A stretch of 16,538 nucleotides of DNA, taken from IMG/VR virus record IMGVR_UViG_2541047850_000009; one strand, written 5' to 3'. Both the position numbers and the translations under genes were made by a program. The stretch's first letter is position 1. Every line of letters starts with the position of its first letter. The notes below the pieces were generated by a model. The model was given only the letters and a program-made list of their open reading frames with translations. It did no database searches and was not told the DNA's origin. Positions 1,783 through 16,538 of this stretch are shown here, in pieces. This stretch comes from a virus (Duplodnaviria > Heunggongvirae > Uroviricota > Caudoviricetes).

Positions 1783-2051
1783 TCACGCTGGCGGCACACA
1801 GCCGCCACACATCAATCATCTGAACACAGAGCTATAACCATGAAGATTGAATATACGCCAGAACGTGGGCGGGGATTCGTTCGCCCTGGTGAAACTGAAA
1901 AACAACAAAATTGGGGTTTTTCAGGCATAACAAAAAGCGCCCAGTTACCTGAGCGCCTTTGTGAACGATTAACCTGCTGCACAAAAAATAAATATGAGCA
2001 TTGGAATTATATCAACTGTGTGAAGAAGCGCCACAATTGCCGGATTACAGG

Positions 2052-2080
2052 CAAAAAAAATGCGACCTATGATGGTCGCA
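2052..2080 (-). terminator. Rho-independent terminator for the leftward small-gene unit
   Basis: 7-bp stem TGCGACC / GGTCGCA with a 6-nt loop (2061..2080). On the minus strand it is followed by a run of 8 T (plus-strand A-run 2053..2060). Confidence 0.5.
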
Positions 2081-2156
2081 AAAATATGATATACATGTTG
2101 ATTACACTATGCATCGACAACGATGCCACATTTTTGGCTGGTTGGCAAATCTGTCA

Positions 2157-2342
2157 TCAGGGCGGACAACAACGCCACGATCTCATCTTTCTTGGGCAAT
2201 TTTTAAGAAAATCCTCAAGGGCAAATCTTTTTGGCCTTGCTTCCTGTTCATGGTCAGGCATTTCATCCATTTCTCTTAATTTTTTTTCTACCTGTCTTTC
2301 AAGTATGGATAATGCGATTTCCCGTAATTCTTCGTTGTTCAT
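2157..2342 (-). CDS. Hypothetical small protein (61 aa)
   Basis: ATG preceded by a strong RBS (CAGGAG, 6-nt spacer). Charged helical-looking N-terminus (MNNEELREIALSILERQVEKKLREMDEM). No family recognised. Confidence 0.5.
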   Translation of the reverse strand: MNNEELREIALSILERQVEKKLREMDEMPDHEQEARPKRFALEDFLKNCPRKMRSWRCCPP

Positions 2343-2399
2343 TGTCTACTCCTGTAAAGAAATGCGCCGTAGTTCCTCACACCACGGCGCTGATAGTTT

Positions 2400-2504
2400 T
2401 TATCCTTTGGGTTCTATGCCGCGTTGCTGTAATTCTTTGCGGATTATTCGCTTTATCCAGGCAGCAAGAGAATCATCGCCGTCCTGTTGTTGTGCCTTTT
2501 CCAT
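2400..2504 (-). CDS. Hypothetical very small protein (35 aa, MEKAQQQDGDDSLAAWIKRIIRKELQQRGIEPKG)
   Basis: Below the ORF-track size cut-off and found by hand translation. Same frame as and just upstream of 2157..2342 (minus), separated by two stops. Weak RBS (GGGAAAAG). Confidence 0.3.
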   Translation of the reverse strand: MEKAQQQDGDDSLAAWIKRIIRKELQQRGIEPKG

Positions 2505-2572
2505 CTTTTCCCGTAAGTCAGGATCTAAACGGAACTGGAACGGAGGATTACCACGCCTTTCGTTTTTGTGTA

Positions 2573-2628
2573 TTGACACGTTAATTACACCTCATGTAAT
2601 GTATTTATGTGTAATGACACATTACACA
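2573..2628. promoter_or_regulatory. Divergent control region with operator-like inverted repeats and a TTGACA -35-like hexamer
   Basis: TTGACA at 2573..2578. Inverted repeat ATTACA-N5-TGTAAT at 2584..2600. Perfect 21-bp palindrome TGTGTAATG-ACA-CATTACACA at 2608..2628. Four TGTAAT/ATTACA half-sites in total, placed between leftward (2504) and rightward (2709) gene starts. Confidence 0.45.
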
Positions 2629-2708
2629 CAATCAACACAAAAAGCAAAGCCCCGCACTGTAGGAGCAGTAACGGGGCTTCTAACCAACAACGTAAACTAG
2701 GAGCCGTT

Positions 2709-2906
2709 ATGGTTGCCGTAAATCATATACCACACCTTGTACACACACAAACGGCCTTTGTGTGGCGTTTTCTGGCACTGAGTGCCGGAGAATCTCAAAT
2801 CATCCACGTAACCGCCTGGACGGAACGCGAAGCGCGTAGCCGTTGCCCGTCCGGTTGTGTTGCTGTATTCGCCGCCCGTATTCGTCAGGGGTCACATCAT
2901 GCGTAA
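2709..2906 (+). CDS. Small conserved protein (66 aa), paralog of the C-terminus of the next gene; possibly Ash/Icd-like (family assignment from memory, unverified)
   Basis: ATG with AGGAG RBS at a 5-nt spacer. Shares FVWRF...VTA.TEREAR...ARIRQG..HA with 2899..3363. Stop overlaps the next start (ATGCGTAA). Confidence 0.6.
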   Translation: MVAVNHIPHLVHTQTAFVWRFLALSAGESQIIHVTAWTEREARSRCPSGCVAVFAARIRQGSHHA

Positions 2907-3363
2907 AAACCGCTTGCAAAAAATTATCACGGGGCTGTATGCTTCCCCCGTCGCCCACATGGCGACCGGGTTTGACAGCCTGAATACATCTGGCGGACAG
3001 CCGCCCACATCCGATAAGCGGTTTTTTTGTGTCCGTAAACCTACCCATACCCGCATTATGGCGGGGCGTAACGGGGGAGCCTTTGTGCTCGCTGGTTTCC
3101 AGATGACCAGTCTGTCAACCCTGTTACGTCTCGCCACCATGTTTGACAGCGTAGTAGCGAGACTCCTTAAAATTCATCTGGGAGCCTTTCACATGGCTGT
3201 ATCCGCACGCCCTTACTTTGTCTGGCGCTTTATGCAGTGCCTGACAGACAGCATTGCAATATTCACCGTTACCGCTGCCACTGAGCGCGAAGCACGCGCA
3301 CAGCTGCCGCACGCACATCTTATTTTTGTCGCCCGTATTCGTCAGGGGGTGTGCCATGCCTGA
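2899..3363 (+). CDS. Hypothetical protein (154 aa) whose C-terminal 50 aa is paralogous to the 2709..2906 product
   Basis: Translationally coupled start. C-terminus RPYFVWRF...TEREAR...ARIRQGVCHA. The same 19-nt DNA string cgcccgtattcgtcagggg occurs at 2873..2891 and 3330..3348. Confidence 0.6.
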   Translation: MRKNRLQKIITGLYASPVAHMATGFDSLNTSGGQPPTSDKRFFCVRKPTHTRIMAGRNGGAFVLAGFQMTSLSTLLRLATMFDSVVARLLKIHLGAFHMAVSARPYFVWRFMQCLTDSIAIFTVTAATEREARAQLPHAHLIFVARIRQGVCHA

Positions 3364-3676
3364 CATGACCAATTACCAGTACCTGATTAATCCGCATTTT
3401 AACTGTGAGCATGATATTGCTAAAAAGGTTTATTCCGCTGCGGATGGGGCTACTGACAATATATCAATGGCTGTTTCGTCAATTGGTAGCCTGATGTGGT
3501 ATGCGTCAGAAAATAAGGAATATGACGAAAAGGCCATGCGCATTGATATGGGTAATATCGGTTTGTTACTGGCAATGCTTGGGCAGTTTGATATTTCGTT
3601 ACGGTGCACCATTGAAAATGCCAAAGATGCATTAAATGCTATAAAGAAAGCGAATACTGATTTAAATCGGGGATAA
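3356..3676 (+). CDS. Hypothetical protein (106 aa), AT-rich gene
   Basis: ATG overlaps the preceding stop (ATGCCTGA); AGGGGG lies 8 nt upstream. GC content looks clearly lower than neighbouring genes by eye. No family recognised. Confidence 0.5.
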   Translation: MPDMTNYQYLINPHFNCEHDIAKKVYSAADGATDNISMAVSSIGSLMWYASENKEYDEKAMRIDMGNIGLLLAMLGQFDISLRCTIENAKDALNAIKKANTDLNRG

Positions 3677-3682
3677 ATAATC

Positions 3683-3982
3683 ATGAGAACATATTTATCT
3701 GGCTTGACTGCCAGCGGTTATGCACACCCCCAAATTATCCCCGGCGCTATTTATCTGGATAAGAACGGTAACAGAGTAACGGTAAAAGAACTGATGTTTG
3801 ACCGAGTGTATTTTATCCGTGATGGCTATTCATTTCTTAGTTCGCTGAACGTGGAGATCTTTATTAGCAGATTCAGGCGGGAAATCCCGCTTTCCAGAAA
3901 TAACCATGTGTCATGTATGGATGTTGATAAAAAACTACAGGAACTAAAAAACATGATTGCCGCGTGGAGAGAGCAGAAATGA
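3683..3982 (+). CDS. Hypothetical protein (99 aa), AT-rich gene
   Basis: ATG 6 nt after the previous stop. Its stop overlaps the primase start (ATGA). No family recognised. Confidence 0.5.
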   Translation: MRTYLSGLTASGYAHPQIIPGAIYLDKNGNRVTVKELMFDRVYFIRDGYSFLSSLNVEIFISRFRREIPLSRNNHVSCMDVDKKLQELKNMIAAWREQK

Positions 3983-6102
3983 AAAAAGCGCCAAATTTAA
4001 AACACCAGCCACGTGACAAAATGACGGAAGTCATCATTTTTGCGGGTAGTGATGCGTGGGCACATGCGAAGCAGTGGCAGGAACAGGACGGGCGACTGGC
4101 TGGCGACAGCGTGCCTCCTGTCTGGCTTGGAGAGCAACAACTTGCCGAACTGGATAAGCTGCAAATTGTGCCGGAAGGCCGAAAATCAGTACGCATATTC
4201 AGGGCCGGACATCTTGAGCCAGTAATGATCAAGGCGATTGGTCAGAAGCTGGCGGCGGCAGGCGTACAGGATGCAAATTTTTACCCTGATGGAATGCACG
4301 GTCAGGAGGTGGAGAACTGGCGCGAATATCTGGCCCGTGAGCGGCAGAATCTTTCTGATGGTCTGGTTATTGAGTTTCCGGTAAAGAAAAAAGATACCGG
4401 AAGCCATAGCGATGACGAATTAAAGCCACGCGTTGAAAGTCGCGCCGATGGTGTTTTCTGGGTAACGCCCAAAGTGGATAAGCAGTCAGGCGAAATTATC
4501 CGGCCTGAGACGTGGTTATGTTCTCCGCTTGAACTACTGGGAACGGGGACGATCGGTAAAGAGCATTACCGCGTGATGCGCTGGAAAAAAACCGCAAACC
4601 ATGAAGTCATCACAATGGCGATCCCGTGTGGTGGTATCGGCGACCGTGACGGCTGGCGGTTACTTAAAGATCACGGGCTGAACGTGACAACCAACGGCAA
4701 ATACAGGGCAATCCTGGCGGACTGGATGCAGTTAAGCGGAAGCCATGAGGAATGGCAGTTAAGCACAACAACGGGCTGGCATTTTGGCGCGTACATCATG
4801 CCGGACGGTTCGATCATTGGTGAATCTGAAAAACCGATCCTGTTTACCGGAAAAAGCGCCGCGATTAACGGTTATTCCGTGGCGGGCACGGCGGATGGCT
4901 GGCGCGACAGCGTGGCGCGGCTGGCTGGCGGTAATGCCTCAATGATGCTGGGTGTGGCAACGTCACTGGCAGCGCCTTTAATTGGCCTTGTGGGTGCTGA
5001 CGGCTTCGGGGTGCATCTTTTCGAACAGTCATCGGCAGGTAAGACCACCACGCAGAACATCGCATCAAGTTTATGGGGAGAGCCGGACGCGCAGCGGCTG
5101 ACCTGGTACGGCACGGCGTTAGGTATTGCCAATGAGGCCGAGGCCCATAATGACGGGCTTTTACCACTGGATGAGATAGGCCAGGCCGGAAATGCGCGGG
5201 AAGTGTCAACGTCTGCTTATACGCTGTTTAACGGTTCAGGGAAATTGCAGGGGGCGAAGGATGGCGGCAACAGGGAGATCAAACACTGGCGAACGGTGGC
5301 AATCAGCACCGGAGAAATGGACGTTGAGACATTCCTCAAAAGTGAGGGGATAAAAGTTAAGGCGGGGCAGCTTGTCCGACTGCTTAACGTTCCGATGGAA
5401 AAAGCCACGAAATTTCACGAATACAGCAACGGTAAGGAACATGCTGACGCGTTAAAGGATGCCTGGACAGCAAATCACGGGGCGGCGGGTCGTGAGTGGG
5501 TTAAATGGCTGGCAGGCCACCAGCAGGAGGCAAAGGATACGGTAAGGGAATGCCGCGAACGGTGGCGCAACCTGATACCGGAGAGCTACGGCGAGCAGGT
5601 CCACCGCGTGGGTGAACGTTTCGCCATACTGGAGGCCGCGCTTGTGCTTTCCGGTCATGTAACTGGCTGGGTCGTGCAGGAATGCCGCGACGCGATACAG
5701 CATAACTTTAATGCCTGGGTGAAGGAGTTCGGCACGGGTAACAGGGAATTTAAACAGATGGTTGAACAGGCTGAGGCGTTTTTGTCGTCGTTTGGGTTTA
5801 GCCGCTACCTTCCGTACCCCAATACAGATGAGCGTGATTTACCGATTAAAGAGCTTGCCGGATACAGAAAAGGGAGCATTCGCAACGAAGATGACGAGAT
5901 GCGCTATTACACGTTCCCGCACGTGTTTGAGAGTGAGATAGCGAAGGGATTTAATCCGGCGCATTTTGCGCGTGCCCTGGATGCTGCCGGAATGCTGGAG
6001 AAGGGAAGCGATCGCCGATACAAAAAAAAGGCGCTGGGCAAGATTGGGGGTAAGCAGCATGTTTTTTACGTGCTGATGTTCCAGCCTGATGATGAAGATT
6101 AA
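3979..6102 (+). CDS. Primase-helicase type replication protein (DUF927 / D5-like NTPase, P4 alpha-like)
   Basis: 707-aa ORF. P-loop-like FEQSSAGKTT and Walker-B-like LLPLDEIG in the central region. Sits immediately upstream of an iteron array. Domain family assigned from memory of typical satellite annotations. Confidence 0.75.
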   Translation: MKKAPNLKHQPRDKMTEVIIFAGSDAWAHAKQWQEQDGRLAGDSVPPVWLGEQQLAELDKLQIVPEGRKSVRIFRAGHLEPVMIKAIGQKLAAAGVQDANFYPDGMHGQEVENWREYLARERQNLSDGLVIEFPVKKKDTGSHSDDELKPRVESRADGVFWVTPKVDKQSGEIIRPETWLCSPLELLGTGTIGKEHYRVMRWKKTANHEVITMAIPCGGIGDRDGWRLLKDHGLNVTTNGKYRAILADWMQLSGSHEEWQLSTTTGWHFGAYIMPDGSIIGESEKPILFTGKSAAINGYSVAGTADGWRDSVARLAGGNASMMLGVATSLAAPLIGLVGADGFGVHLFEQSSAGKTTTQNIASSLWGEPDAQRLTWYGTALGIANEAEAHNDGLLPLDEIGQAGNAREVSTSAYTLFNGSGKLQGAKDGGNREIKHWRTVAISTGEMDVETFLKSEGIKVKAGQLVRLLNVPMEKATKFHEYSNGKEHADALKDAWTANHGAAGREWVKWLAGHQQEAKDTVRECRERWRNLIPESYGEQVHRVGERFAILEAALVLSGHVTGWVVQECRDAIQHNFNAWVKEFGTGNREFKQMVEQAEAFLSSFGFSRYLPYPNTDERDLPIKELAGYRKGSIRNEDDEMRYYTFPHVFESEIAKGFNPAHFARALDAAGMLEKGSDRRYKKKALGKIGGKQHVFYVLMFQPDDED

Positions 6103-7614: not shown

Positions 7615-7704
7615 ATGATCGGTGCGATTGCTGATTTCCTTATGAAAAACGGTTGAGTGTTTGCCGCGTCCTGGAGTTCCTTACTTAACTTCAGGACTTT
7701 TTTT

Positions 7705-8862
7705 ATGCCGAGAATAATCGAATTACGCCAGCAGAAAACCGCCATTAAAAATCAGATGCGCGACATGCTGGAGAACGCGGAAAAAGAAAACCGCAGCCTT
7801 AACGATGCTGAGGGCGCAAAATTTGACGAATTACGCGCTAAAGCTGAATCCCTCGATAAAGACATTTCCCGCCTTGAAGCCATTGCAGACGAAGAGCGCA
7901 GTAAACCAGGCAAAAACAGCCAGACCACTGACCCCGCAGAACTACGCAACTACATTCTGACAGGTGAAACCCGCGCATTAAGTACAGGCGTTCCCGCTGA
8001 TGGTGGTTATACCGTTATCCCCGAACTGAACACCGAAATCATGCGAATGCTGGCGGATGAGTCCACCATGCGCCGCATCTGTACCGTGAAGAAAATCAGC
8101 AGCAACGAGTTTAAGCAGCTTGTTTCCGCTGGCGGTGCGACCGTTAACCACGGTGAAGAGGGTAAGACACGCGAACAGACCAGCACCCCGCAGATTAACG
8201 AGGTGAGCATTAAGCTGTATCCGGTCTATGCGTACCCGCGCACCACACAGGAAATCGTGGATTTTTCCGATGTGGACATCCTTTCATGGCTGACGGGTGA
8301 GATTGGCGACACCTTCACGGAAACCGAAGAAAGCGATCTGGTTGTGGGCGACGGTGACAAAAAAGCAAAAGGTTTTTTATCCGTACCCCGTGCAGAGAAG
8401 AACGACAAAGAGCGTGATTTTGGTACGTTGCAGGTAATTAAACCTTCCGAATCTCTGGCGTGGACATCTGCGGACCCGCTGATCGACCTGAAATTTGCAT
8501 TACGTAAAAAATACCGCAAAAACGCGGTCTGGGTGGTTAACTCCACGACGGCGGCAAAACTTCAGAAGGTGAAGAACGCGAACGGTGATTACATCTGGCG
8601 CGACCGTTTACAGGCGGGTGATCCTGATACGTTACTGGGCCTTCCGGTCGAATATCTGGAGTTTATGCCGGATAACGTTATTGCCCTGGGTGACTTCAAA
8701 CGCGGTTACTACATTGTTGATCACGAAACAGGTGTTCGCACCAGACCGGACAACCTCACAGAGCCGGGCTTCATCAAAATTTTCACGCAGAAATATTTAG
8801 GCGGTGGCGTGGTGGATTCGAACGCGATCAAGATTCTGGAACTGCCACAGGACGACGATTAA
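7705..8862 (+). CDS. Major capsid protein, HK97 fold, with N-terminal scaffold-like (delta) coiled-coil domain
   Basis: 385-aa product. N-terminal 90 aa is coiled-coil-like and charged (IIELRQQKTAIKNQMRDMLENAEK...). Followed by a prohead protease gene. Start chosen at the ATG at 7705 rather than the upstream track start. Confidence 0.88.
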   Translation: MPRIIELRQQKTAIKNQMRDMLENAEKENRSLNDAEGAKFDELRAKAESLDKDISRLEAIADEERSKPGKNSQTTDPAELRNYILTGETRALSTGVPADGGYTVIPELNTEIMRMLADESTMRRICTVKKISSNEFKQLVSAGGATVNHGEEGKTREQTSTPQINEVSIKLYPVYAYPRTTQEIVDFSDVDILSWLTGEIGDTFTETEESDLVVGDGDKKAKGFLSVPRAEKNDKERDFGTLQVIKPSESLAWTSADPLIDLKFALRKKYRKNAVWVVNSTTAAKLQKVKNANGDYIWRDRLQAGDPDTLLGLPVEYLEFMPDNVIALGDFKRGYYIVDHETGVRTRPDNLTEPGFIKIFTQKYLGGGVVDSNAIKILELPQDDD

Positions 8863-8901: not shown

Positions 8902-8916
8902 ATGGGTGAAAAAATT

Positions 8917-9474
8917 ATGAAGAGTATGGAAATCCGGTCATCGGAAATCACTACCAGCGGAGCCGGTACGCTGACGGGCTACGTTGTTCGCTGGGATAAG
9001 CTTTCAGAACTGCTATGGGGGGAGTTTTACGAAAAATTCCAGCGGGGGGCGTTTACTGAGTGGCTTGCGGCGGGTAATGACGTTCGCGGCCTGTATGAGC
9101 ATGACCACAGCATGTTACTGGGGCGCACCCGTTCCGGCACGCTGAAACTGGAAGAGGACGAAACAGGGTTACGCTTTGAACTGACCCCACCGGATACCAG
9201 TACAGGGCGCGACGTTATCGAACTGGTTAAGCGTGGGGACATCTCGGGGATGAGCTTTGGCTTTCGCTCCCGTAAGGATGTATGGGATACCACAACAGAT
9301 CCATGCGTGCGCACCGTGCTGGTGGCGGAACTATACGAAATTACCGTTACATCCGTACCGGCTTACCCTGATTCCGGCGTGGAGCTGGCCCGCCGCTCCC
9401 TGTACGAGCAGCACCCCGAAAAAATGCCGCGTGCGGATAATCGCCGCTGGTGGGCGGATTTAGCGGGGGTGTGA
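8917..9474 (+). CDS. Prohead (capsid maturation) protease, HK97 family
   Basis: About 185 aa with HK97-protease-like length and position directly after the capsid gene. Alternative in-frame start at 8902. Confidence 0.8.
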   Translation: MKSMEIRSSEITTSGAGTLTGYVVRWDKLSELLWGEFYEKFQRGAFTEWLAAGNDVRGLYEHDHSMLLGRTRSGTLKLEEDETGLRFELTPPDTSTGRDVIELVKRGDISGMSFGFRSRKDVWDTTTDPCVRTVLVAELYEITVTSVPAYPDSGVELARRSLYEQHPEKMPRADNRRWWADLAGV

Positions 9475-9475
9475 T

Positions 9476-10687
9476 ATGTGGCCTTTCAGAAGAAAAAAAG
9501 AGCAGCGCAGCATGACGCTTGATGAGTTTATGGCGCTGGCTGGCACATCGAACACGGGGGCGGGTGAGTACGTATCATCGGGGACAGCGGAATCACTGCC
9601 CGCCGTCATGAACGCCGTGACGGTCATCTCTGAGGCGGTGGCTACCATGCCGTGTTACCTGTACCTGGTACGCAATGAGAAGGGGAAGGAGGCCCGAGAG
9701 TGGTTTGATTCTCATCCGGTCGATCACATCCTCAACGAGCGCCCGAACGCATGGCAAACCCCCTACCAGTTTAAGCGAATGATGATCCGCCACTGCCTGT
9801 TAAACGGTAATGCTTATGCGGTGATTCGGTGGGGGCGTGATGGTTTTCCGGTGGCTTTACATCCTTACCCGCCGCAGTCGGTGAACGTGGAGCAGACAGG
9901 TGAGCATAACTGGCGCTACTGCATCACTGACGCCTACACCGGAAACACCCGCAACTATTTACCGTGGGAGGTTCTCCACCTTCGTTACTCCACGGATGAC
10001 GGTTTTATGGGGCGCTCACCTGTAACCATCTGCCGCGAATCGCTGGGGCTTGGGCTGGCCCAACAACGCCACGGCGCGAGCGTGATGCGTGATGGCATGA
10101 TGGCGGCAGGGGTTATCACGTCAGGCGAGTGGCTGGACGGCGTGAAGGGTAAACAGGCATTAGCCGCACTGGAACGCTACAAAGGGGCCAGAAACGCCGG
10201 AAAAACGCCCATCCTTGAAGGGGGTATGAGCTATCAGCAGCTGGGCATGAGTAATCAGGATGCTGAATGGCTGGCCTCCCGTCGCTTCACCATTGAAGAC
10301 ATCGCCCGAATGTTCAACGTCTCGCCGATTTTTTTGCAGGAATACAGCAACAGCACCTACAGCAATTTCAGCGAGGCAAGCCGCGCATTTCTCACCATGA
10401 CGATGCGCCCGTGGCTGGCGAACTTTGAGCAGCAGATAAAAAACGCCCTGCTGGTGGCCTCGCCTGTACCTGGTATCCGGTATCAGGTGGAGTTTGACAG
10501 CGCGGACCTGTTACGGGCCACACCTGGCGAACGCTTTGCCACCTATGAACGCGGCATCAAATCCGGCGTTATGTGCCCGAACGAAGCCCGCGAACGTGAA
10601 GGGCTGTCCCCGCGTGATGGTGGTGATGAGTTCAGCCAGGCATGGAAACAGGAAGTAAAAATCAGCGAGGGAGAAAAACCGGAATGA
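9476..10687 (+). CDS. Portal protein (HK97-type)
   Basis: 403-aa ORF with portal-like length and composition. Start is 1 nt after the protease stop. Flanked by head genes. Confidence 0.85.
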   Translation: MWPFRRKKEQRSMTLDEFMALAGTSNTGAGEYVSSGTAESLPAVMNAVTVISEAVATMPCYLYLVRNEKGKEAREWFDSHPVDHILNERPNAWQTPYQFKRMMIRHCLLNGNAYAVIRWGRDGFPVALHPYPPQSVNVEQTGEHNWRYCITDAYTGNTRNYLPWEVLHLRYSTDDGFMGRSPVTICRESLGLGLAQQRHGASVMRDGMMAAGVITSGEWLDGVKGKQALAALERYKGARNAGKTPILEGGMSYQQLGMSNQDAEWLASRRFTIEDIARMFNVSPIFLQEYSNSTYSNFSEASRAFLTMTMRPWLANFEQQIKNALLVASPVPGIRYQVEFDSADLLRATPGERFATYERGIKSGVMCPNEAREREGLSPRDGGDEFSQAWKQEVKISEGEKPE

Positions 10688-11022
10688 ACATAGGGCGACT
10701 GCGTGACAGGATAACGATTCAGACCCTGAAACAGACCAGGGATATAACCGGCGAAATACTCGAAACGTGGGTGGACGGTCACACACTCTGGGCAAGCGTG
10801 AACATGATCAGCAGCAAGGAGGCCATTTCATCGGGTGCAGAACTGGCGACTGGAACGGTAAGGATATGGATACGCTACAGGAAGGACATCAACGCCACCA
10901 GCCGGATAAAGGTCAATACGGGGCCGCTGGCGGGGCGTGTACTGAATATCATCGGGCAGCCGCTGCCGGATGCCGCCAGGACACGCCTTGAAATTCTTTG
11001 TCGTGAGGGCGCGGAAAAATGA
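10684..11022 (+). CDS. Head closure / head-tail joining protein
   Basis: 112 aa. N-terminal GRLRDRITIQ...TRD...W matches the head-closure family pattern (G.LR.R.TIQ....TRD). ATGA overlap with the portal stop. Confidence 0.75.
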   Translation: MNIGRLRDRITIQTLKQTRDITGEILETWVDGHTLWASVNMISSKEAISSGAELATGTVRIWIRYRKDINATSRIKVNTGPLAGRVLNIIGQPLPDAARTRLEILCREGAEK

Positions 11023-11315
11023 CAGAAGAACTTATCACCCTGGAAGAAGTGAAACTCCATTGCCGCATCGATGGCGACGAGGAAGACCAGTTAATCAGCG
11101 GATACATTGCCGCATCGCTTGAGGCGTGCCAGATACATATAGGCAGGCGCTTTGATGACGGGCTGGCGTTCACGCCAGCCATAAAGATTGGCTGCATGAT
11201 GTTTATCGCTCACCTGTATGAAAATCGCCAGATTGTCGCGGATAACGCAAAAACACGCGTACCCATGACGATAGGCGCACTCTGGACGGCTTACCGTGAT
11301 GTGGGGGTGTACTGA
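11019..11315 (+). CDS. gp6-like head-tail connector protein
   Basis: 98 aa. N-terminal ITLEEVKLHCRIDGDEEDQLISGYIAAS matches the gp6-like connector pattern (ITLEE.K.HLRID.DDED.LI...I.AA). ATGA overlap with the previous gene. Confidence 0.7.
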   Translation: MTEELITLEEVKLHCRIDGDEEDQLISGYIAASLEACQIHIGRRFDDGLAFTPAIKIGCMMFIAHLYENRQIVADNAKTRVPMTIGALWTAYRDVGVY

Positions 11316-11755
11316 TGCCGTGGCAACCATTAAGACGATGCACAGAACCAGGCTGTAACAGGCGCGTGAAGTCCGGCAAGTGTGAGGAGCACAGGCGGGC
11401 GGCATGGCGTGCAGAGGATGCCAGACGAGGACACCGCCGCGCGCGTGGGTACTCCAGACAGTGGGACAAATACCGCGCCATGTATCTGAGTAAAAACCCG
11501 TTATGCGTGCGATGCCTTGAGAAGGGGATATATACGCCCGCCGTGGTGGTGGATCACATTATCCCCATCGATGGCGGCGATGATGTTCTCTTCTGGCCCG
11601 AATGGAACCATCAACCATTGTGCCAGGCGTGTCATAACCAGAAAACGAAATGGCTTGATCTGGCAACAAAAAGCAAGCGTGCCGCAGGTGGATTTCGTGA
11701 AGAGGAAGAACGGGCCGCTAACCGCAATAACTGGATGTATGACGCTGATGAATGA
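11315..11755 (+). CDS. HNH endonuclease (terminase-associated)
   Basis: Paired Cys motifs (CTEPGC, CVRC, CQACHNQ) and the His-Asn-His core VVDHIIP...WNHQPLC. Sits immediately upstream of terS/terL, as in cos-type HK97-like phages. Confidence 0.88.
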   Translation: MPWQPLRRCTEPGCNRRVKSGKCEEHRRAAWRAEDARRGHRRARGYSRQWDKYRAMYLSKNPLCVRCLEKGIYTPAVVVDHIIPIDGGDDVLFWPEWNHQPLCQACHNQKTKWLDLATKSKRAAGGFREEEERAANRNNWMYDADE

Positions 11756-11921
11756 GCGGAAACAAAACCGCCTTATCCGTGGACTTATAAGGCAGCGTGA
11801 CGCATGGAAGACACAGGAAACAGGGCATAAAGATAAAGCGTCAGGACGCGCAGAACGCATCACAGCGAAGCGATTAACCGACCGTGACCGCGAGGTTATG
11901 GAATGTTTCCGCAATCGCTGA
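11748..11921 (+). CDS. Possible small basic protein (57 aa, MNERKQNRLIRGLIRQRDAWK...)
   Basis: Only the part of track ORF 11517..11921 that does not overlap HNH. No convincing RBS. May instead be non-coding DNA holding the packaging site. Confidence 0.22.
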   Translation: MNERKQNRLIRGLIRQRDAWKTQETGHKDKASGRAERITAKRLTDRDREVMECFRNR

Positions 11922-11924
11922 TGA

Positions 11925-12044
11925 GGCTGTATGACGGGGTGGGGGGCGTTTTCAGGACAAACCCGACCCCGCCGGGCACCGACCGCCTCCTCAAATTTTT
12001 ATGCACGGGAATTTTTTGAAAAATAATCTGGCGAAAAAATAAGC
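11925..12044. other. Candidate cos / packaging-initiation region upstream of terS
   Basis: G-rich (gacggggtggggggcg) then C-rich (cccgaccccgccgggcaccgaccgcctcc) segment, then an AT-rich tract. Lies between HNH and terS, where HNH-dependent cos sites usually sit. Confidence 0.3.
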
Positions 12045-12401
12045 ATGTCAAGACCACCGAAAGCCCCCGCCTACCTGGATGACATCGCCGTGAAGCAGTG
12101 GCGGGAAAAATCGCGGCAGCTTGCGGAACGGGGAGACCTGACCCCCGCCGACTGGAGCAATCTGGAACTGTATTGTGTCAACTACTCCATTTACCGGAAA
12201 GCCGTTGCAGACCTTGCGGCGCGCGGGTTCAGCATTGTTAACAGTCAGGGCGGCGAGAGCAGAAACCCCGCATTAAGCGCAAAATCCGACGCTGAAAGGG
12301 TGATGATAAAAATGGCCTCCTTGCTCGGTTTTGACCCGATAAGCCGCCGTAAAAATCCACCGGAAACAGAAGAAGAGGACGAGCTTGACCGCCTGGAATA
12401 A
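12045..12401 (+). CDS. terS: Terminase small subunit (P27-family-like)
   Basis: 118 aa, directly upstream of and overlapping terL. Acidic C-terminal tail. N-terminus (AVKQWREKSRQLAERGDLTPADWSNLELYC) resembles P27-type TerS. Confidence 0.75.
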   Translation: MSRPPKAPAYLDDIAVKQWREKSRQLAERGDLTPADWSNLELYCVNYSIYRKAVADLAARGFSIVNSQGGESRNPALSAKSDAERVMIKMASLLGFDPISRRKNPPETEEEDELDRLE

Positions 12402-14046
12402 GTACGCAGAAGACGTAAAAACGGGCAAAATTCCGGCCTGTAAACGGCTGAAACAGGCCGTTAAACGGTACTTTTCGGACCTTGAAAGCCCCCTTTACAC
12501 GTTCGATCGTGAGGTTGTGGAGCGGTTTATTGCCTTTTCCAGGGTGTGCCCGCACGTAAAAGGGCCGATGCGTGGCAGACCCATTGAGCTGGAGCCGTGG
12601 CAGCAGTTCGCCTTTGCGTGCATCCTCGGCTTTAAGGTTAAGGCCACCGGACGGCGCAAATACACGAGCGCCTTTATCGAAGTGCCGCGCAAAAATGCGA
12701 AATCCACGACCGCCGCGATTCTGGCTAACTGGTTTCTGATTATGGAGAACGGTCAGCAGGATATCTACACCGCAGCGGTGAGCCGTGACCAGGCGCGGAT
12801 CGTCTTTGATGATGCGCGTCAGATGTGCCTTTTATCCCGACCGTTACGCAGGCGGGTGAATATTCAGGCGCATAAGGTGATGCACCCGAAAAGCAACAGC
12901 CTGTTAAAGCCGCTGGCAGCAAAAGCGGCAACCATCGAGGGAACAAACCCCAGCCTTTCCATCGTGGACGAATACCACTTGCACCCCGATAACGGCGTTT
13001 ATTCCGCGCTTGAGCTGGGGATGGGCGCACGTCCCGAAGGGCTGTTATTTGCTATTACCACATCAGGCAGTAACGTCGTTTCAGCCTGTAAGCAGCACTA
13101 TGATTATTGCTGCCAGATCCTGGACGGCGAAGAGGTCAACGATTCAATTTTTGTACTGATTTACGAACTGGACGACGAAAACGAGGTTGATGATCCGGCG
13201 ATGTGGATAAAGGCGAACCCTAATATTGATGTTTCCGTGGATCGTGAAAAACTGGCCTCAACCATCCAGAAAGCGCGGGGTATTCCGTCGCAGTGGGTGG
13301 AGATGATGACAAAGCGATTTAATATCTGGTGCCAGGGGGCTACCCCGTGGATGGGTAACGGCGCATGGGCTGAGTGTGCCGGAACGTTCACGGAGGAAGA
13401 TTTACACGGCCAGGAGTGTTACGCGGGGCTGGACTTATCATCAACCAGCGATATTTCCAGCGTGTGCTATGCCTTTCCGGTCGGTAAAACCATTATGCTG
13501 GTTTCCCGTCACTATCTGCCGGAATTTCAGCTACAGAACCCCGCCAATAAAAACCGCGCCATCTATCGTCAGTGGGCTAAAGCAGGCTGGATACGCACAA
13601 CGCCTGGCGACTGCATTGATTACGACCGGATCAGAGATGACATCATGCAGGACGCGGAGAAATTTAATATCAGGCTGGTGGGCTTTGATACGTGGAACGC
13701 CACGCATCTCAGAACGCAATTACAGGGGGCAGGTTTTGAGGTGGAGCCGTTCCCGCAAACCTACCTCAGATTCAGTCCGGCGGCGAAATCGTTCGAAGTT
13801 TTTGTTAACCGCAGGGTGATTGTGCATCGTGGCGATCCGGTGTTGTCCTGGTCGATGAGTAACGTCGTGATGCAGAGTGACGCGAACGCCAATATCAAGC
13901 CGAACAAGAAAAAATCACCGAACAAGATAGACCCGAGCGTGGCGGCGCTGATGGCGTTTGGTACATTCCAGGCAGAGCATGAGGATTTTGCTTTTGATAT
14001 AAGCGACAGCCACCGCCAGAAACTGGAAGAATTTAGCGGGGTGTAA
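12385..14046 (+). CDS. terL: Terminase large subunit
   Basis: 553-aa ORF. P-loop-like VPRKNAKST in the N-terminal ATPase region and an acidic nuclease-type C-terminal half. Apparent TTG start at 12385, 5 nt after GAGGA, overlapping the terS end. Confidence 0.88.
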   Translation: MTAWNKYAEDVKTGKIPACKRLKQAVKRYFSDLESPLYTFDREVVERFIAFSRVCPHVKGPMRGRPIELEPWQQFAFACILGFKVKATGRRKYTSAFIEVPRKNAKSTTAAILANWFLIMENGQQDIYTAAVSRDQARIVFDDARQMCLLSRPLRRRVNIQAHKVMHPKSNSLLKPLAAKAATIEGTNPSLSIVDEYHLHPDNGVYSALELGMGARPEGLLFAITTSGSNVVSACKQHYDYCCQILDGEEVNDSIFVLIYELDDENEVDDPAMWIKANPNIDVSVDREKLASTIQKARGIPSQWVEMMTKRFNIWCQGATPWMGNGAWAECAGTFTEEDLHGQECYAGLDLSSTSDISSVCYAFPVGKTIMLVSRHYLPEFQLQNPANKNRAIYRQWAKAGWIRTTPGDCIDYDRIRDDIMQDAEKFNIRLVGFDTWNATHLRTQLQGAGFEVEPFPQTYLRFSPAAKSFEVFVNRRVIVHRGDPVLSWSMSNVVMQSDANANIKPNKKKSPNKIDPSVAALMAFGTFQAEHEDFAFDISDSHRQKLEEFSGV

Positions 14047-14059
14047 TGAGGTCAGCAGC

Positions 14060-14341
14060 ATGACAGAAGCCGAAATAACGGGATTAATCCGCCGCGTTGC
14101 CGGAATCAGCCAGCAGGCTGACGAACAGGCCACGCAGCCGGACAGCGTGACAGCCGAAAACTATGCGCGTGTTGTTGCTGAGGTGATGCGCCGTGATGGT
14201 ATAGAACTTAATGGCGTGGATATGCGCAACATACGAACCAGAGTTCTTGAGTTGCTGGCCTACCGTCGCCGTGTGGAGATGTATCGGGAGAAGGAGAAAA
14301 TAACGTACCACTGGAAGAAGCCGGAGCGGTTGCGGCGGTAA
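14060..14341 (+). CDS. Hypothetical protein (93 aa), last gene of the island
   Basis: ATG 9 nt after GAGG. Arg-rich C-terminus. No family recognised. Confidence 0.45.
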   Translation: MTEAEITGLIRRVAGISQQADEQATQPDSVTAENYARVVAEVMRRDGIELNGVDMRNIRTRVLELLAYRRRVEMYREKEKITYHWKKPERLRR

Positions 14342-14595
14342 CTGGTTGATATTCCCGACGGCCCAAAAATGGGTTGGCTACACCCCTCACAACTACGACA
14401 TTTTCGCAGTTTAATTAATGGTCAGCTTAATCGCTAACCCGCTGATATTTTCGGAAACCTCAATTTGAGGAAGTCGGCGCGGTAACTCGCTGAACTTTAA
14501 GCAAAGCGCAAAATTGCGCTTGCTGAATAATCATTATGATTACGCAGATGATTAAGGAATGACCGAAGGCGGAAATTCGCCTGTGGTTAATGGGG

Positions 14596-14615
14596 GAGTT
14601 GCAGATCTGCAACTC
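14596..14615. repeat. Perfect 20-bp palindrome GAGTTGCAGATCTGCAACTC
   Basis: Read directly. One of several dyads in the non-coding right end, alongside TGGGGATCCCCA at 14847..14858, AAGCGCAA-AA-TTGCGCTT at 14499..14516 and CCGGAA-AAAAA-TTCCGG at 14828..14844. Confidence 0.4.
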
Positions 14616-14938
14616 GACCATGAAACTACGGAAACTACCCGTAGTTTGGGTAGTAAGAGTAACACCCAGATTTTGGGGCTTACTCGTGATACCCAAATTT
14701 GGGGTATCAGTGGCAACCATAACGACTTTCGTTACGGTTGATGCTTTTACCCCATTGGGGGAAAGGTATTACGATAATCATAACACCTACCGAACAGGTA
14801 AAGCCCACCAGCCTGATTAACGTTTAACCGGAAAAAAATTCCGGTAGGTGGGGATCCCCATATCGACATTAACGCCCCTCATGAATTGGTGCGCTTCCCC
14901 CTGGAAAGATGATCCGCCTGTATATTTCTTGTGTCTAT

Positions 14939-15077: not shown

Positions 15078-16538
15078 TTATTCATCTTTCGGCGCAGAAT
15101 GCTGGCGACCAAAAATCACTTCCATCCGCGCACCGCCCAGCATGCTCTCTCCGGCGACGATTTTACCCTCATATTGCTCGGTGATTTCGCGGGCTACCGC
15201 CAGCCCCACACCTTGCCCAGGGCGTAAAGTATCAACCCGTTGACCACGGTCGAAAATGACCTCTCGCTTGCTTAATGGAATACCGGGGCCATCATCCTCG
15301 ACCACAATATAGAGATGCTCGTCGGTTTGCCTTGCAGAAATTTCGACAAACTCGAGGCAATATTTACAGGCGTTATCCAGCACGTTGCCCATCACTTCGA
15401 CAAAATCATTCTGCTCACCAACAAAGCTGATTTCTGGCGAGATATCGAGAGAGATATTGACCCCTTTGCGTTGATACACTTTGTTCAGCGCCGAGGTGAG
15501 ATTGTCCAACAGTGGCGCGACCGGATGCAGCTCGCGGCTAAGCAATGTCCCGCCGCGCATACTGGCACGATGCAGGTAGTAGCCAATTTGCTGTGAAATG
15601 CGGCTGATTTGCTCCAGCATTACCGGCTCAGCATCACTGACGCTCATCTTCTCACTACGCAGAGAACGCAGCGTACTTTGCAGCACCGCCAGTGGCGTTT
15701 TCAGACTATGGGTCAGGTCGGTGAGCGTTGTACGATATTTGTCGTAACGTTCGCGTTCACTTTTTAACAGTCGGTTCAGGTTTCGTACCAGACTGGTCAG
15801 TTCTCGCGTTGTGGCTGGATTGAGCAATTCACGGTTATGTTCTTCCAGTTCGCGGACTTCTTTTGCCAGGGCTTCGATGGGGCGTAAACTCCACCAGGCG
15901 GCGACCCACAGCAGCGGGATCACTAACAGCAGATTGGCTGAGAGCACATAGATAAACCAGCTCCAGACCATATAGGAACTTTTTAGCTCCACCGGAATGG
16001 TATCCACCACCACAATGGTTAACTTTGGCATCCGCGATGTTGCCGGGTAGACGTTTACCGCCACCGAGTGGGTCATCTCCGCGTCGTCATCATCTTCCCG
16101 CACTTCCTGCAACTGTTGCTGTATCGAATGATCTCCACTCAGCAAGAGGCTGGTATCGTTAACATCCGCTTCAATTTCATGAAAACCATTCGATTTCAGC
16201 CAGTCAGGCTGGATCATCTTCATCAGCCAGGGCACGTCACGTTGCGCCCATAAAAGCTGCCCGTTCTCATCATAAATTAGTGTCATCGTGGGGCTTTGCT
16301 TGTCGATATTTTCGGGTAACTCGACATGCAACTTATTGTTTTCCCACTTCGCAAGGGTATAGAACAGATTGCTCTCGCCACGTAACAGCCGAAACGTGGT
16401 TTTATCGAAACTGACGCTATAACCGATCAGCGCAACCATTCCGTAGGCAAGCGAAAGCACCAATACTACTGCTGCCGTTGCTAACAGAAAACGTACCCGC
16501 AGCGAGAGCGGGAAAAAAAGATGCAGTAATTTTTTCAT
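15078..16538 (-). CDS. phoQ: Sensor histidine kinase PhoQ of the PhoP/PhoQ two-component system
   Basis: 486-aa product recognised as PhoQ: two transmembrane segments, a periplasmic sensor with the acidic patch [10 protein letters not shown], the H-box [12 protein letters not shown], and an ATPase domain with DDGPGIP and GQGVGL. Complete ORF with its start at the window end. Confidence 0.96.

Follow-up and report, generated by a model that had tools for sequence, protein, structure and literature searches.

The window analysed here, a stretch of 16,538 nucleotides (nt) from a Caudoviricetes record (IMGVR_UViG_2541047850_000009), very probably carries a capsid-forming phage-inducible chromosomal island (cf-PICI) of the EcCIEDL933 type, located beside phoQ, in which the segment 11936-12026 acts as a cohesive-end packaging site (cos) of the HK97 style with 3' ends. 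The assignment of cos to the gap between the HNH endonuclease gene and terS, which encodes the small terminase subunit TerS, is held with high confidence. Self-packaging from an own cos with an own HNH protein, TerS and large terminase (TerL) has already been published and is what defines cf-PICIs, but we found no mapping of cos to the base pair for these islands in the literature searched. What is added here is a prediction of the nicks at base-pair resolution, a minimal cassette, near-invariance of the cassette across cf-PICIs of several bacterial families and a geometry shared with HK97.

The original prediction had placed an HNH endonuclease gene directly before terS and terL, with about 290 bp before terS in which a G-rich segment is followed by a C-rich one. 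Pfam matches and homology to HK97 confirmed this layout: 289 bp separate the HNH stop from the terS start, with the G-run GGGGTGGGGGG at 11936-11946 and the C-rich segment CACCGACCGCCTCCTC at 11977-11992. The features of the region are the following.

11315..11755, +: HNH endonuclease, a gp74-like packaging accessory nuclease (PF01844, E = 1.2e-8; phrog_144, E = 1.4e-44)
11748..11921, +: gene of a small basic protein of 57 amino acids (aa), alternative start 11739, overlapping the HNH 3' end
11936..11958, +: block A, upstream cos element, consisting of the G-run and then CGTTTTCAGGAC, among the final ~45 bp packaged at the right end
11959..11979, +: spacer, variable for the most part and closing with the predicted final base pair of the right end (...GGGCAC)
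11980..11989, +: predicted 10-nt 3' cohesive end CGACCGCCTC, nicked at 11979|11980 on the bottom strand and 11989|11990 on the top strand
11990..12003, +: packaged left end, first 14 bp CTCAAATTTTTATG, the most conserved non-coding block
12003..12026, +: predicted TerS recognition region, with GCACGGGAATTTTTT at +14..+28 (12003-12017) and then GAAAAATAA
12045..12401, +: small terminase TerS of the P27 family (PF05119, E = 1.3e-23; phrog_83)
12385..14046, +: large terminase TerL, an HK97 gp2-like ATPase and nuclease (PF03354, TerL_ATPase; PF20441, TerL_nuclease)

The predicted minimal cos cassette thus spans ~90 bp (11936-12026). Block A may signal termination in the manner of cosQ or be contacted by a nuclease, while TerS would, by analogy with HK97, bind at 12003-12017. 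Between the small gene and terS (11922-12044), 122 of 123 positions are identical to EcCIEDL933. The sole difference lies at 11983 (C in the window, A in EcCIEDL933), inside the cohesive 10-mer, and this position is therefore evidently tolerant of change.

Fixed termini between HNH and terS were seen in relatives, namely in two linear assemblies. The contig IMGVR_UViG_3300022664_000095 (15,518 bp) has int in its interior, that is, it shows the excised permutation. It starts CTCAAATTTTTACGCACGG / CTCAAATTTTTACGCACGGTGATTTTTTTGAAAATAAAAC... (first letters CTCAAATTTTT), with the terS ATG at 61, and ends ...CAGGACAAAACCCAAGCCGCAAGGCAC / ...TTTTCAGGACAAAACCCAAGCCGCAAGGCAC (...GGCAC), without terminal overlap. 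In intact relatives, ...GGCAC and CTCAAA... are separated by precisely 10 nt (CACCCGCCCC or a near variant of it), and the contig ends are equivalent to window positions 11979 (right) and 11990 (left). End repair degrades 3' overhangs, and 3'-cos particle DNA yields a linear contig that is bounded by the termini and lacks the cohesive sequence (PMC5557969, PhageTerm). By the same logic, the 10 nt being absent rather than duplicated at both contig ends suggests 3' polarity. The overhang length is backed by the exact 10-nt gap and equals that of HK97, which has 10-nt 3' overhangs (PMC9410871, PMC11331095). For the window, the predicted cut leaves a right end running to 11979, the cohesive 10-mer at 11980-11989 and a left end from 11990; we infer that this very island is cut in the same way. 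The original prediction had suspected the cleavage site within about 11931-11990, and the termini of the relatives place the 10-mer at the 3' edge of that segment.

The other linear assembly, LR881103.1, is a 16,548-bp contig from a lysate on Klebsiella pneumoniae DSM 30104 (Nextera XT library, SPAdes assembly, no re-ordering described). It too is in the excised permutation, with terS at 23, int mid-contig and HNH and the small gene last; it starts ACGAAAAGGAAAACAGTAAGTTATG and ends ...GGGGTGGGGGAGGTTTTCAGGAC. These ends lie 69 nt apart in the integrated copy of K. pneumoniae ATCC 13883, which we take to be the same strain as DSM 30104, so that the lysate assembly is linear with its junction missing. 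The 69 nt divide into 21 + 10 + 38 nt around the cohesive 10-mer, and the flanking losses (21 and 38 nt) presumably reflect poor recovery of molecule ends in tagmentation libraries. Its gene content and >99% identity to K. pneumoniae DSM 30104 identify the contig as the cf-PICI KpCIDSM30104, in the linear permutation of the mature form. The record bears the name “Escherichia phage vB_KppS-Ant” and was published as a filamentous single-stranded DNA phage of a novel genus (PMC8006926); the 765-aa open reading frame (ORF) after its terL is annotated as a tape measure protein.

A blastn search (distant setting) with 11700-12100 against 50,697 phage records returned three matches only: the lysate assemblies Ant and P12620-1, both with cf-PICI sequence, and one short unverified lysate contig. 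No phage in this collection thus carries the island site, and the cos of HK97, HK022 and HK106 differs from it in sequence, in agreement with the earlier proposal of an island-specific cos. In the second of these records (PQ569648.1, Klebsiella phage P12620-1, a 106.5-kb “complete genome”), a cf-PICI of ~15.5 kb occupies the 3' end (~90640-106503), beginning at the terS start and breaking off 5 nt short of the small-ORF stop, again in the HNH-terS gap; the record is apparently a chimeric assembly.

Further viral contigs were retrieved in three ways. A first retrieval based on TerS gave 80 close relatives, mostly proviruses from isolate genomes, which were uninformative on termini. Scanning with the left-end motif gave no further terminal matches among the matches listed. 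A scan with window-type block A returned one end-adjacent contig only, from an isolate draft genome (L442, IMGVR_UViG_2563366883_000010), which is ambiguous. It is identical to the window here and ends ...GGGCACC, 1 nt into the 10-mer (11980); either linear DNA packaged in the culture or a branch of the assembly graph at which island copies diverge may account for this.

To gauge conservation, we used 43 loci from species-representative genomes, retrieved by TerS protein alignment alone and amounting to 27 unique sequences; sets picked on the DNA motif itself were left out. The hosts comprise Klebsiella, Citrobacter, Enterobacter, Kosakonia, Pantoea, Erwinia, Rahnella, Serratia, Pectobacterium, Aeromonas and several Pasteurellaceae. 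All 27 sequences align without a gap from the G-run to the T-tract, with the following mean pairwise identities.

Flank before block A: 0.42
11934-11958, block A: 0.755
11959-11976, spacer: 0.50, the level of synonymous sites, with invariant length
11980-11989, cohesive 10-mer: 0.82
11990-12003, first 14 nt of the left end (CTCAAATTTTTAYG): 0.945
12004-12011: 0.70
12012-12027, T-tract to AAAATAA: 0.80
12028-12041, proximal to the ribosome-binding site: 0.44
terS codon positions 1 / 2 / 3: 0.85 / 0.88 / 0.51

The conserved blocks thus equal the first and second codon positions of terS in identity, and the conservation peak falls exactly on the mapped terminus. Within the 10-mer, positions 2, 3 and 9 vary among islands, while positions 1 and 10 are conserved. 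In the single window, the G-run is only mildly unusual and statistically unremarkable: there is one occurrence of its pattern GGGGNGGGGG, where 0.17 are expected, and at least one match arises in 30 of 200 shuffles. It is its conservation across islands that argues against chance. A variant of the block A 23-mer, GGGGTGGGGGAGGTTTTCAGGAC, typical of the Klebsiella/88%-TerS group and 2 nt away from that of the window, occurs exactly in at least 120 viral contigs. The same blocks are present in the Pasteurella elements Pmp7 and Pmp8 (TerL 68% identical).

Islands of Haemophilus, Rodentibacter and Bisgaard Taxon 46 carry the core, from the C-rich tract through AAAATAA, 60-120 bp upstream of terS. 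The inserts, seen in Haemophilus sp. FF7 (L248), Rodentibacter (L246) and Bisgaard Taxon 46 (L250), are short palindromes of the CCAATTTTGG / CCAAATTTGG type. That they separate the core from terS argues for a self-contained DNA element rather than a mere terS leader.

The cos core is near-invariant even though cf-PICI proteins have diverged to 60-80% identity. One conceivable reading is that cf-PICIs share a quasi-universal cos, such that the terminase of an induced cf-PICI could package co-resident or defective cf-PICIs across species; the geometry would then be set by the TerL-HNH pair rather than by TerS, and helpers would be discriminated by a few bases, for instance GGG versus CCC at +18..+20. 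We offer this tentatively and think it somewhat unlikely.

Two further cases deserve separate mention. An element of Shigella flexneri SFBU1023 (L213, CP182556.1) reads ...GGACAAACCCGACCCCGCC|TACCTGG, owing to a deletion of ~95 bp between CCCCGCC direct repeats (window ~11972-12067). Since the deletion removed the cohesive end, the left end, the T-tract and the first terS codons, this element is probably an immobilised relic. In the draft genome of Pasteurellaceae bacterium Macca (L238-L245, L254), at least nine loci encode the same cf-PICI-type TerS, 67-69% identical to that of the window, which is an unusually high satellite copy number.

The cos of HK97 has been mapped physically. The cos junctions of HK97, HK022 and HK106 are near-identical and consist of GGGCAGGGGGGGGG, 42 nt, the cut and GTTTGAATTTAACGCTAACCCGATTTTTTT, with terS at +50; the 42 nt from the G-run to the cut were counted up to the boundary of the record. 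The interval that separates the G-run from the T-run is 65 nt long in the island and in HK97 alike. In the island the T-run begins at +23 and terS at +56, in HK97 at +24 and +50, respectively, placing the cut ~50-55 bp upstream of terS in both. The gene order around the site is likewise common to both, with HNH immediately before cos and terS-terL immediately after, and the cohesive end, 10 nt and 3' in HK97, is predicted to be the same in the island. The minimal TerS site of HK97 (+15..+29, CTAACCCGATTTTTT, A-tract included; PMC11331095) matches 12003-12017 of the island in position. Sequence is less well preserved than spacing. With the final 10 nt of the HK97 record taken as the overhang, ~4 of 10 cohesive-end positions match, and at about +18..+20 the island has GGG in place of the CCC of HK97. 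When a profile of the cf-PICI cos was run over the whole HK97 genome with nhmmer, its best match was the cos junction.

The proteins that would act on the site show a similar mixture of likeness and difference. The HNH protein shares 39% identity with HK97 gp74 (E = 3e-19), shows the motifs CxxC...DH...N...CxxCH in its translation and differs from its EcCIEDL933 orthologue by 1 aa. TerL is 27% identical to HK97 gp2 (E = 1e-46) and 9 aa away from the EcCIEDL933 protein, and both TerL and HNH belong to the same Pfam families as their HK97 homologues. These two marks of an HK97-type 3'-cos, a gp2-like TerL and a gp74-like HNH protein, are therefore present, whereas a gp1-like small terminase is not: the island TerS, 1 aa away from EcCIEDL933 TerS, has no similarity to HK97 gp1 (BLASTP E = 2.5; hhalign probability 0.1%) and no relative in the PDB by sequence search. 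Packaging thus appears to be HK97-cos-like, yet with a TerS from another family than gp1. The original prediction had taken the order of HNH and terminase genes as a sign of HK97-like cos packaging, and the gp74 and gp2 homologues sustain it. So does a related island, KpCIDSM30104, whose DNA is reported to re-anneal via cohesive ends (bioRxiv 10.1101/2025.02.11.637232, He et al.).

Several points weigh against reading the segment as an HK97-style 3'-cos. The termini come from contig ends of relatives (TerL ~81% identical) rather than from particle DNA of this island, and sample 3300022664 may be a virome or a bulk metagenome. The 3' polarity is deduced from the absence rather than the duplication of 10 nt. 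In the scan with the left-end motif, 42 metagenome contigs cross the site unbroken and none ends there; this is expected of integrated copies, and these contigs add no support. The nhmmer match to the HK97 junction has E = 0.56, which is not significant alone and makes the support positional only, and the pairwise cos alignment with HK97 is weak (z ~3.9 against mononucleotide shuffles). As the island TerS lacks detectable similarity to gp1, the transfer of the +15..+29 site from HK97 is by analogy only.

The doubt over the sample also bears on the possibility that the contig ends are assembly artefacts, caused by a graph branch of co-occurring variants or by low coverage of GC-rich sequence, with the real cos elsewhere in the gap or the island. 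Variation at positions 2, 3 and 9 of the 10-mer would allow for such a branch, and for the isolate contig that stops 1 nt into the 10-mer a branch is the easier explanation, the source being a draft genome. However, one and the same breakpoint is seen in two assemblies that are independent of each other and stem from different samples and sequence variants, both in the excised permutation, and a bubble would drop only the interval between variable positions, whereas the missing 10-mer is conserved at positions 1 and 10. Together with a gap as long as the HK97 overhang and a site that coincides with both the conservation maximum and the HK97 geometry, this renders an artefact improbable. Packaging by the headful (pac) mode from this region has almost nothing to commend it: TerS genes often contain pac sites elsewhere, but we see nothing specific for headful packaging here, and the fixed, non-overlapping ends of the two relatives' assemblies, the cohesive-end re-annealing reported for KpCIDSM30104 (bioRxiv 10.1101/2025.02.11.637232) and an HNH gene beside an HK97-type TerL, typical of cos phages, all speak against it.

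The conserved blocks could instead mainly be elements that control terS-terL, such as a promoter, an operator or an antitermination site, given that they lie directly upstream of terS and that the A/T-rich tract could be an UP-element or bent DNA; cos and a control element could also overlap. A promoter or terminator was rejected, since 11600-12200 contains neither a plus-strand sigma-70-like promoter nor a terminator-like site. Moreover, the block spacing is kept in the Haemophilus, Rodentibacter and Bisgaard islands despite the 60-120 bp of palindromes before terS, contig termini fall inside the blocks, and the physically mapped cos of HK97 has the same layout, so that we judge a mainly regulatory role to be very unlikely. 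A hairpin or cruciform as the functional signal is scarcely credible. The window does contain a 10-nt inverted repeat, 90% complementary, between G-rich (11935-11944) and C-rich (11962-11971) arms. But its 3' arm falls in the variable spacer, where most other islands lack the complementarity, and the fold of 11922-12044 is ordinary (z = -0.87, with 35 of 200 shuffles folding as well), and this candidate was likewise rejected.

On the reading of the segment as an HK97-style 3'-cos, packaging would proceed as follows. After induction, excision and replication, the island TerS (P27) would bind just downstream of the cut, at ~12003-12017 together with the T-tract. TerL and the gp74-like HNH protein would then nick at 11979|11980 (bottom) and 11989|11990 (top), generating 10-nt 3' ends CGACCGCCTC. 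Packaging would begin at the terS-proximal end (CTCAAATTTTT...), take in terS, terL, the joined att site, int, the replication genes and the head genes in this order, and stop at the next cos. With termination there, HNH, the small ORF and the G-run block would be the last to enter the small capsid made by the island.

The original prediction had named as a counter-case a real, conserved protein at 11748..11921 that leaves no room for a site. The ORF is a genuine gene, but 123 bp remain and hold the site. The ORF matches phrog_3173 (E = 4e-36, over residues 4-60; RefSeq label “hypothetical protein”) and is found in 18 islands of different genera, where it keeps the C-terminus ...ERDRELxECFRNR*. 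Identity at codon positions 1/2/3 is 0.72/0.78/0.51, and TGA, TAG and TAA all occur at the shared stop position. It is conserved in the cf-PICIs of Enterobacterales but not in the islands of Pasteurellaceae, Aeromonas, Citrobacter and Leclercia.

As to the island as a whole, it aligns with EcCIEDL933 at 96-97% identity in int, in the replication genes and throughout the packaging module, and both elements occupy the same locus (roxA...phoQ); the EDL933 counterpart sits between roxA and phoQ, and the same element is annotated as prophage Sp7 in Sakai. The window element is a ~97% identical variant of EcCIEDL933, the prototype cf-PICI. Its remaining genes are listed below.

1-1230: tyrosine integrase (PF13356 and PF00589)
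3964-6102: DUF927 primase-helicase
7657-8862: HK97-fold major capsid protein (PF05065)
8902-9474: prohead protease (PF04586)
9476-10687: portal (PF04860)
10642-11022: head-completion protein (PF05521)
11019-11315: gp6-like connector (PF05135)
15078-16538, minus strand: phoQ, before which the island stops

The window thus encodes a PICI-type integrase and a replication module with its DUF927 primase-helicase, a complete head module of its own (capsid, protease, portal, head closure/adaptor and connector) and its own packaging genes in the order hnh-terS-terL, as expected of a cf-PICI. For EcCIEDL933, which is 97% identical, the annotation lists a helix-turn-helix regulator, SSB and PerC. Neither tail nor lysis genes are found among the ORFs of the window or in the annotation of the orthologous element. 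With regard to the 10-18 kb expected of a cf-PICI, the left att site falls outside the window. Two parts, ~1981-4023 (early/regulatory) and 14354-14711, lack collinearity with EcCIEDL933, apart from short patches of 87-95% identity, so that the early/regulatory module and the right-end segment of the island differ from those of the prototype.

Directly after terL lies a 93-aa ORF (14060-14341; phrog_1561, no Pfam match) that is conserved in EcCIEDL933. Relatives hold quite different genes at this position, namely one for a 199-aa protein with a weak match to lambda tail assembly protein I (L286) and the 765-aa ORF of Ant, which makes it a variable accessory slot. By megablast, the HNH-to-terS segment is present in 489 of 5,426 complete E. 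coli genomes (489-534 for HNH-cos-terS), always in the chromosome and in up to five copies per genome; the copies fall into two main identity bands, ~95-99% and ~82-87%.

What the original prediction had inferred about helper independence, an own cos and terminase without need of the helper's TerS, had already been published for EcCIEDL933 on the basis of mutant transfer. There, each mutation in the packaging module abolishes transfer of the island, except in the hypothetical gene 1792, where transfer is severely reduced, whereas mutating the homologous genes of the helper HK106 abolishes transfer of the phage and leaves that of the island intact (bioRxiv 10.1101/2022.09.08.507074, Alqurainy et al.). 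From its helper, EcCIEDL933 needs tail genes only, and helper-induced transfer in small capsids made by the island and fitted with helper tails has been established experimentally (bioRxiv 10.1101/2022.09.08.507074). Gene 1792 may correspond to the small ORF at 11748-11921 or to the ORF at 14060-14341.

Since self-packaging with nothing but tails from the helper is the published definition of cf-PICIs, the finding opens no new question. The gain is practical: a testable prediction of the nicks (11979|11980 and 11989|11990), the 10-nt 3' end and the cassette (~11936-12026), which could be used to build plasmids packageable into cf-PICI capsids and cos-knockout controls. Mature-form cf-PICI genomes in viromes become recognisable by their start (CTCAAATTTTT) and end (...GGCAC), and mis-annotated records, such as “vB_KppS-Ant” with its description as a filamentous phage, can be corrected.

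Among known systems, EcCIEDL933 has the gene order of the window throughout, with capsid, protease, portal, head closure, connector, HNH, small ORF, terS, terL and the ORF that follows. HK97 has a TerL and an HNH protein homologous to those of the island, which itself has no tail, lysis or immunity genes; the TerS of HK97 has no Pfam match, as opposed to the P27 family (PF05119) of the island's, and the two share no profile similarity. The sequence differences between the cos sites agree with published work in which packaging of the island and that of the helper exclude each other. SaPIbov5 and the satellite P4 are cos-packaged like the island, and the helpers of SaPIbov5 likewise need an HNH protein. 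Both of these satellites, however, copy the cos of their helper and use its terminase, whereas the cos, terminase and HNH protein of the island are its own and unlike those of the helper. E. coli PICIs of the Rpp type (EcCICFT073) and pac-type Staphylococcus aureus pathogenicity islands (SaPIs) of the Ppi/TerS type are likewise phage-inducible, with a similar int-alpA-rep backbone. Such islands re-programme or replace the TerS of their helper and still need its TerL and capsid, in contrast to the present island, which encodes TerS, TerL, HNH and the whole head itself.

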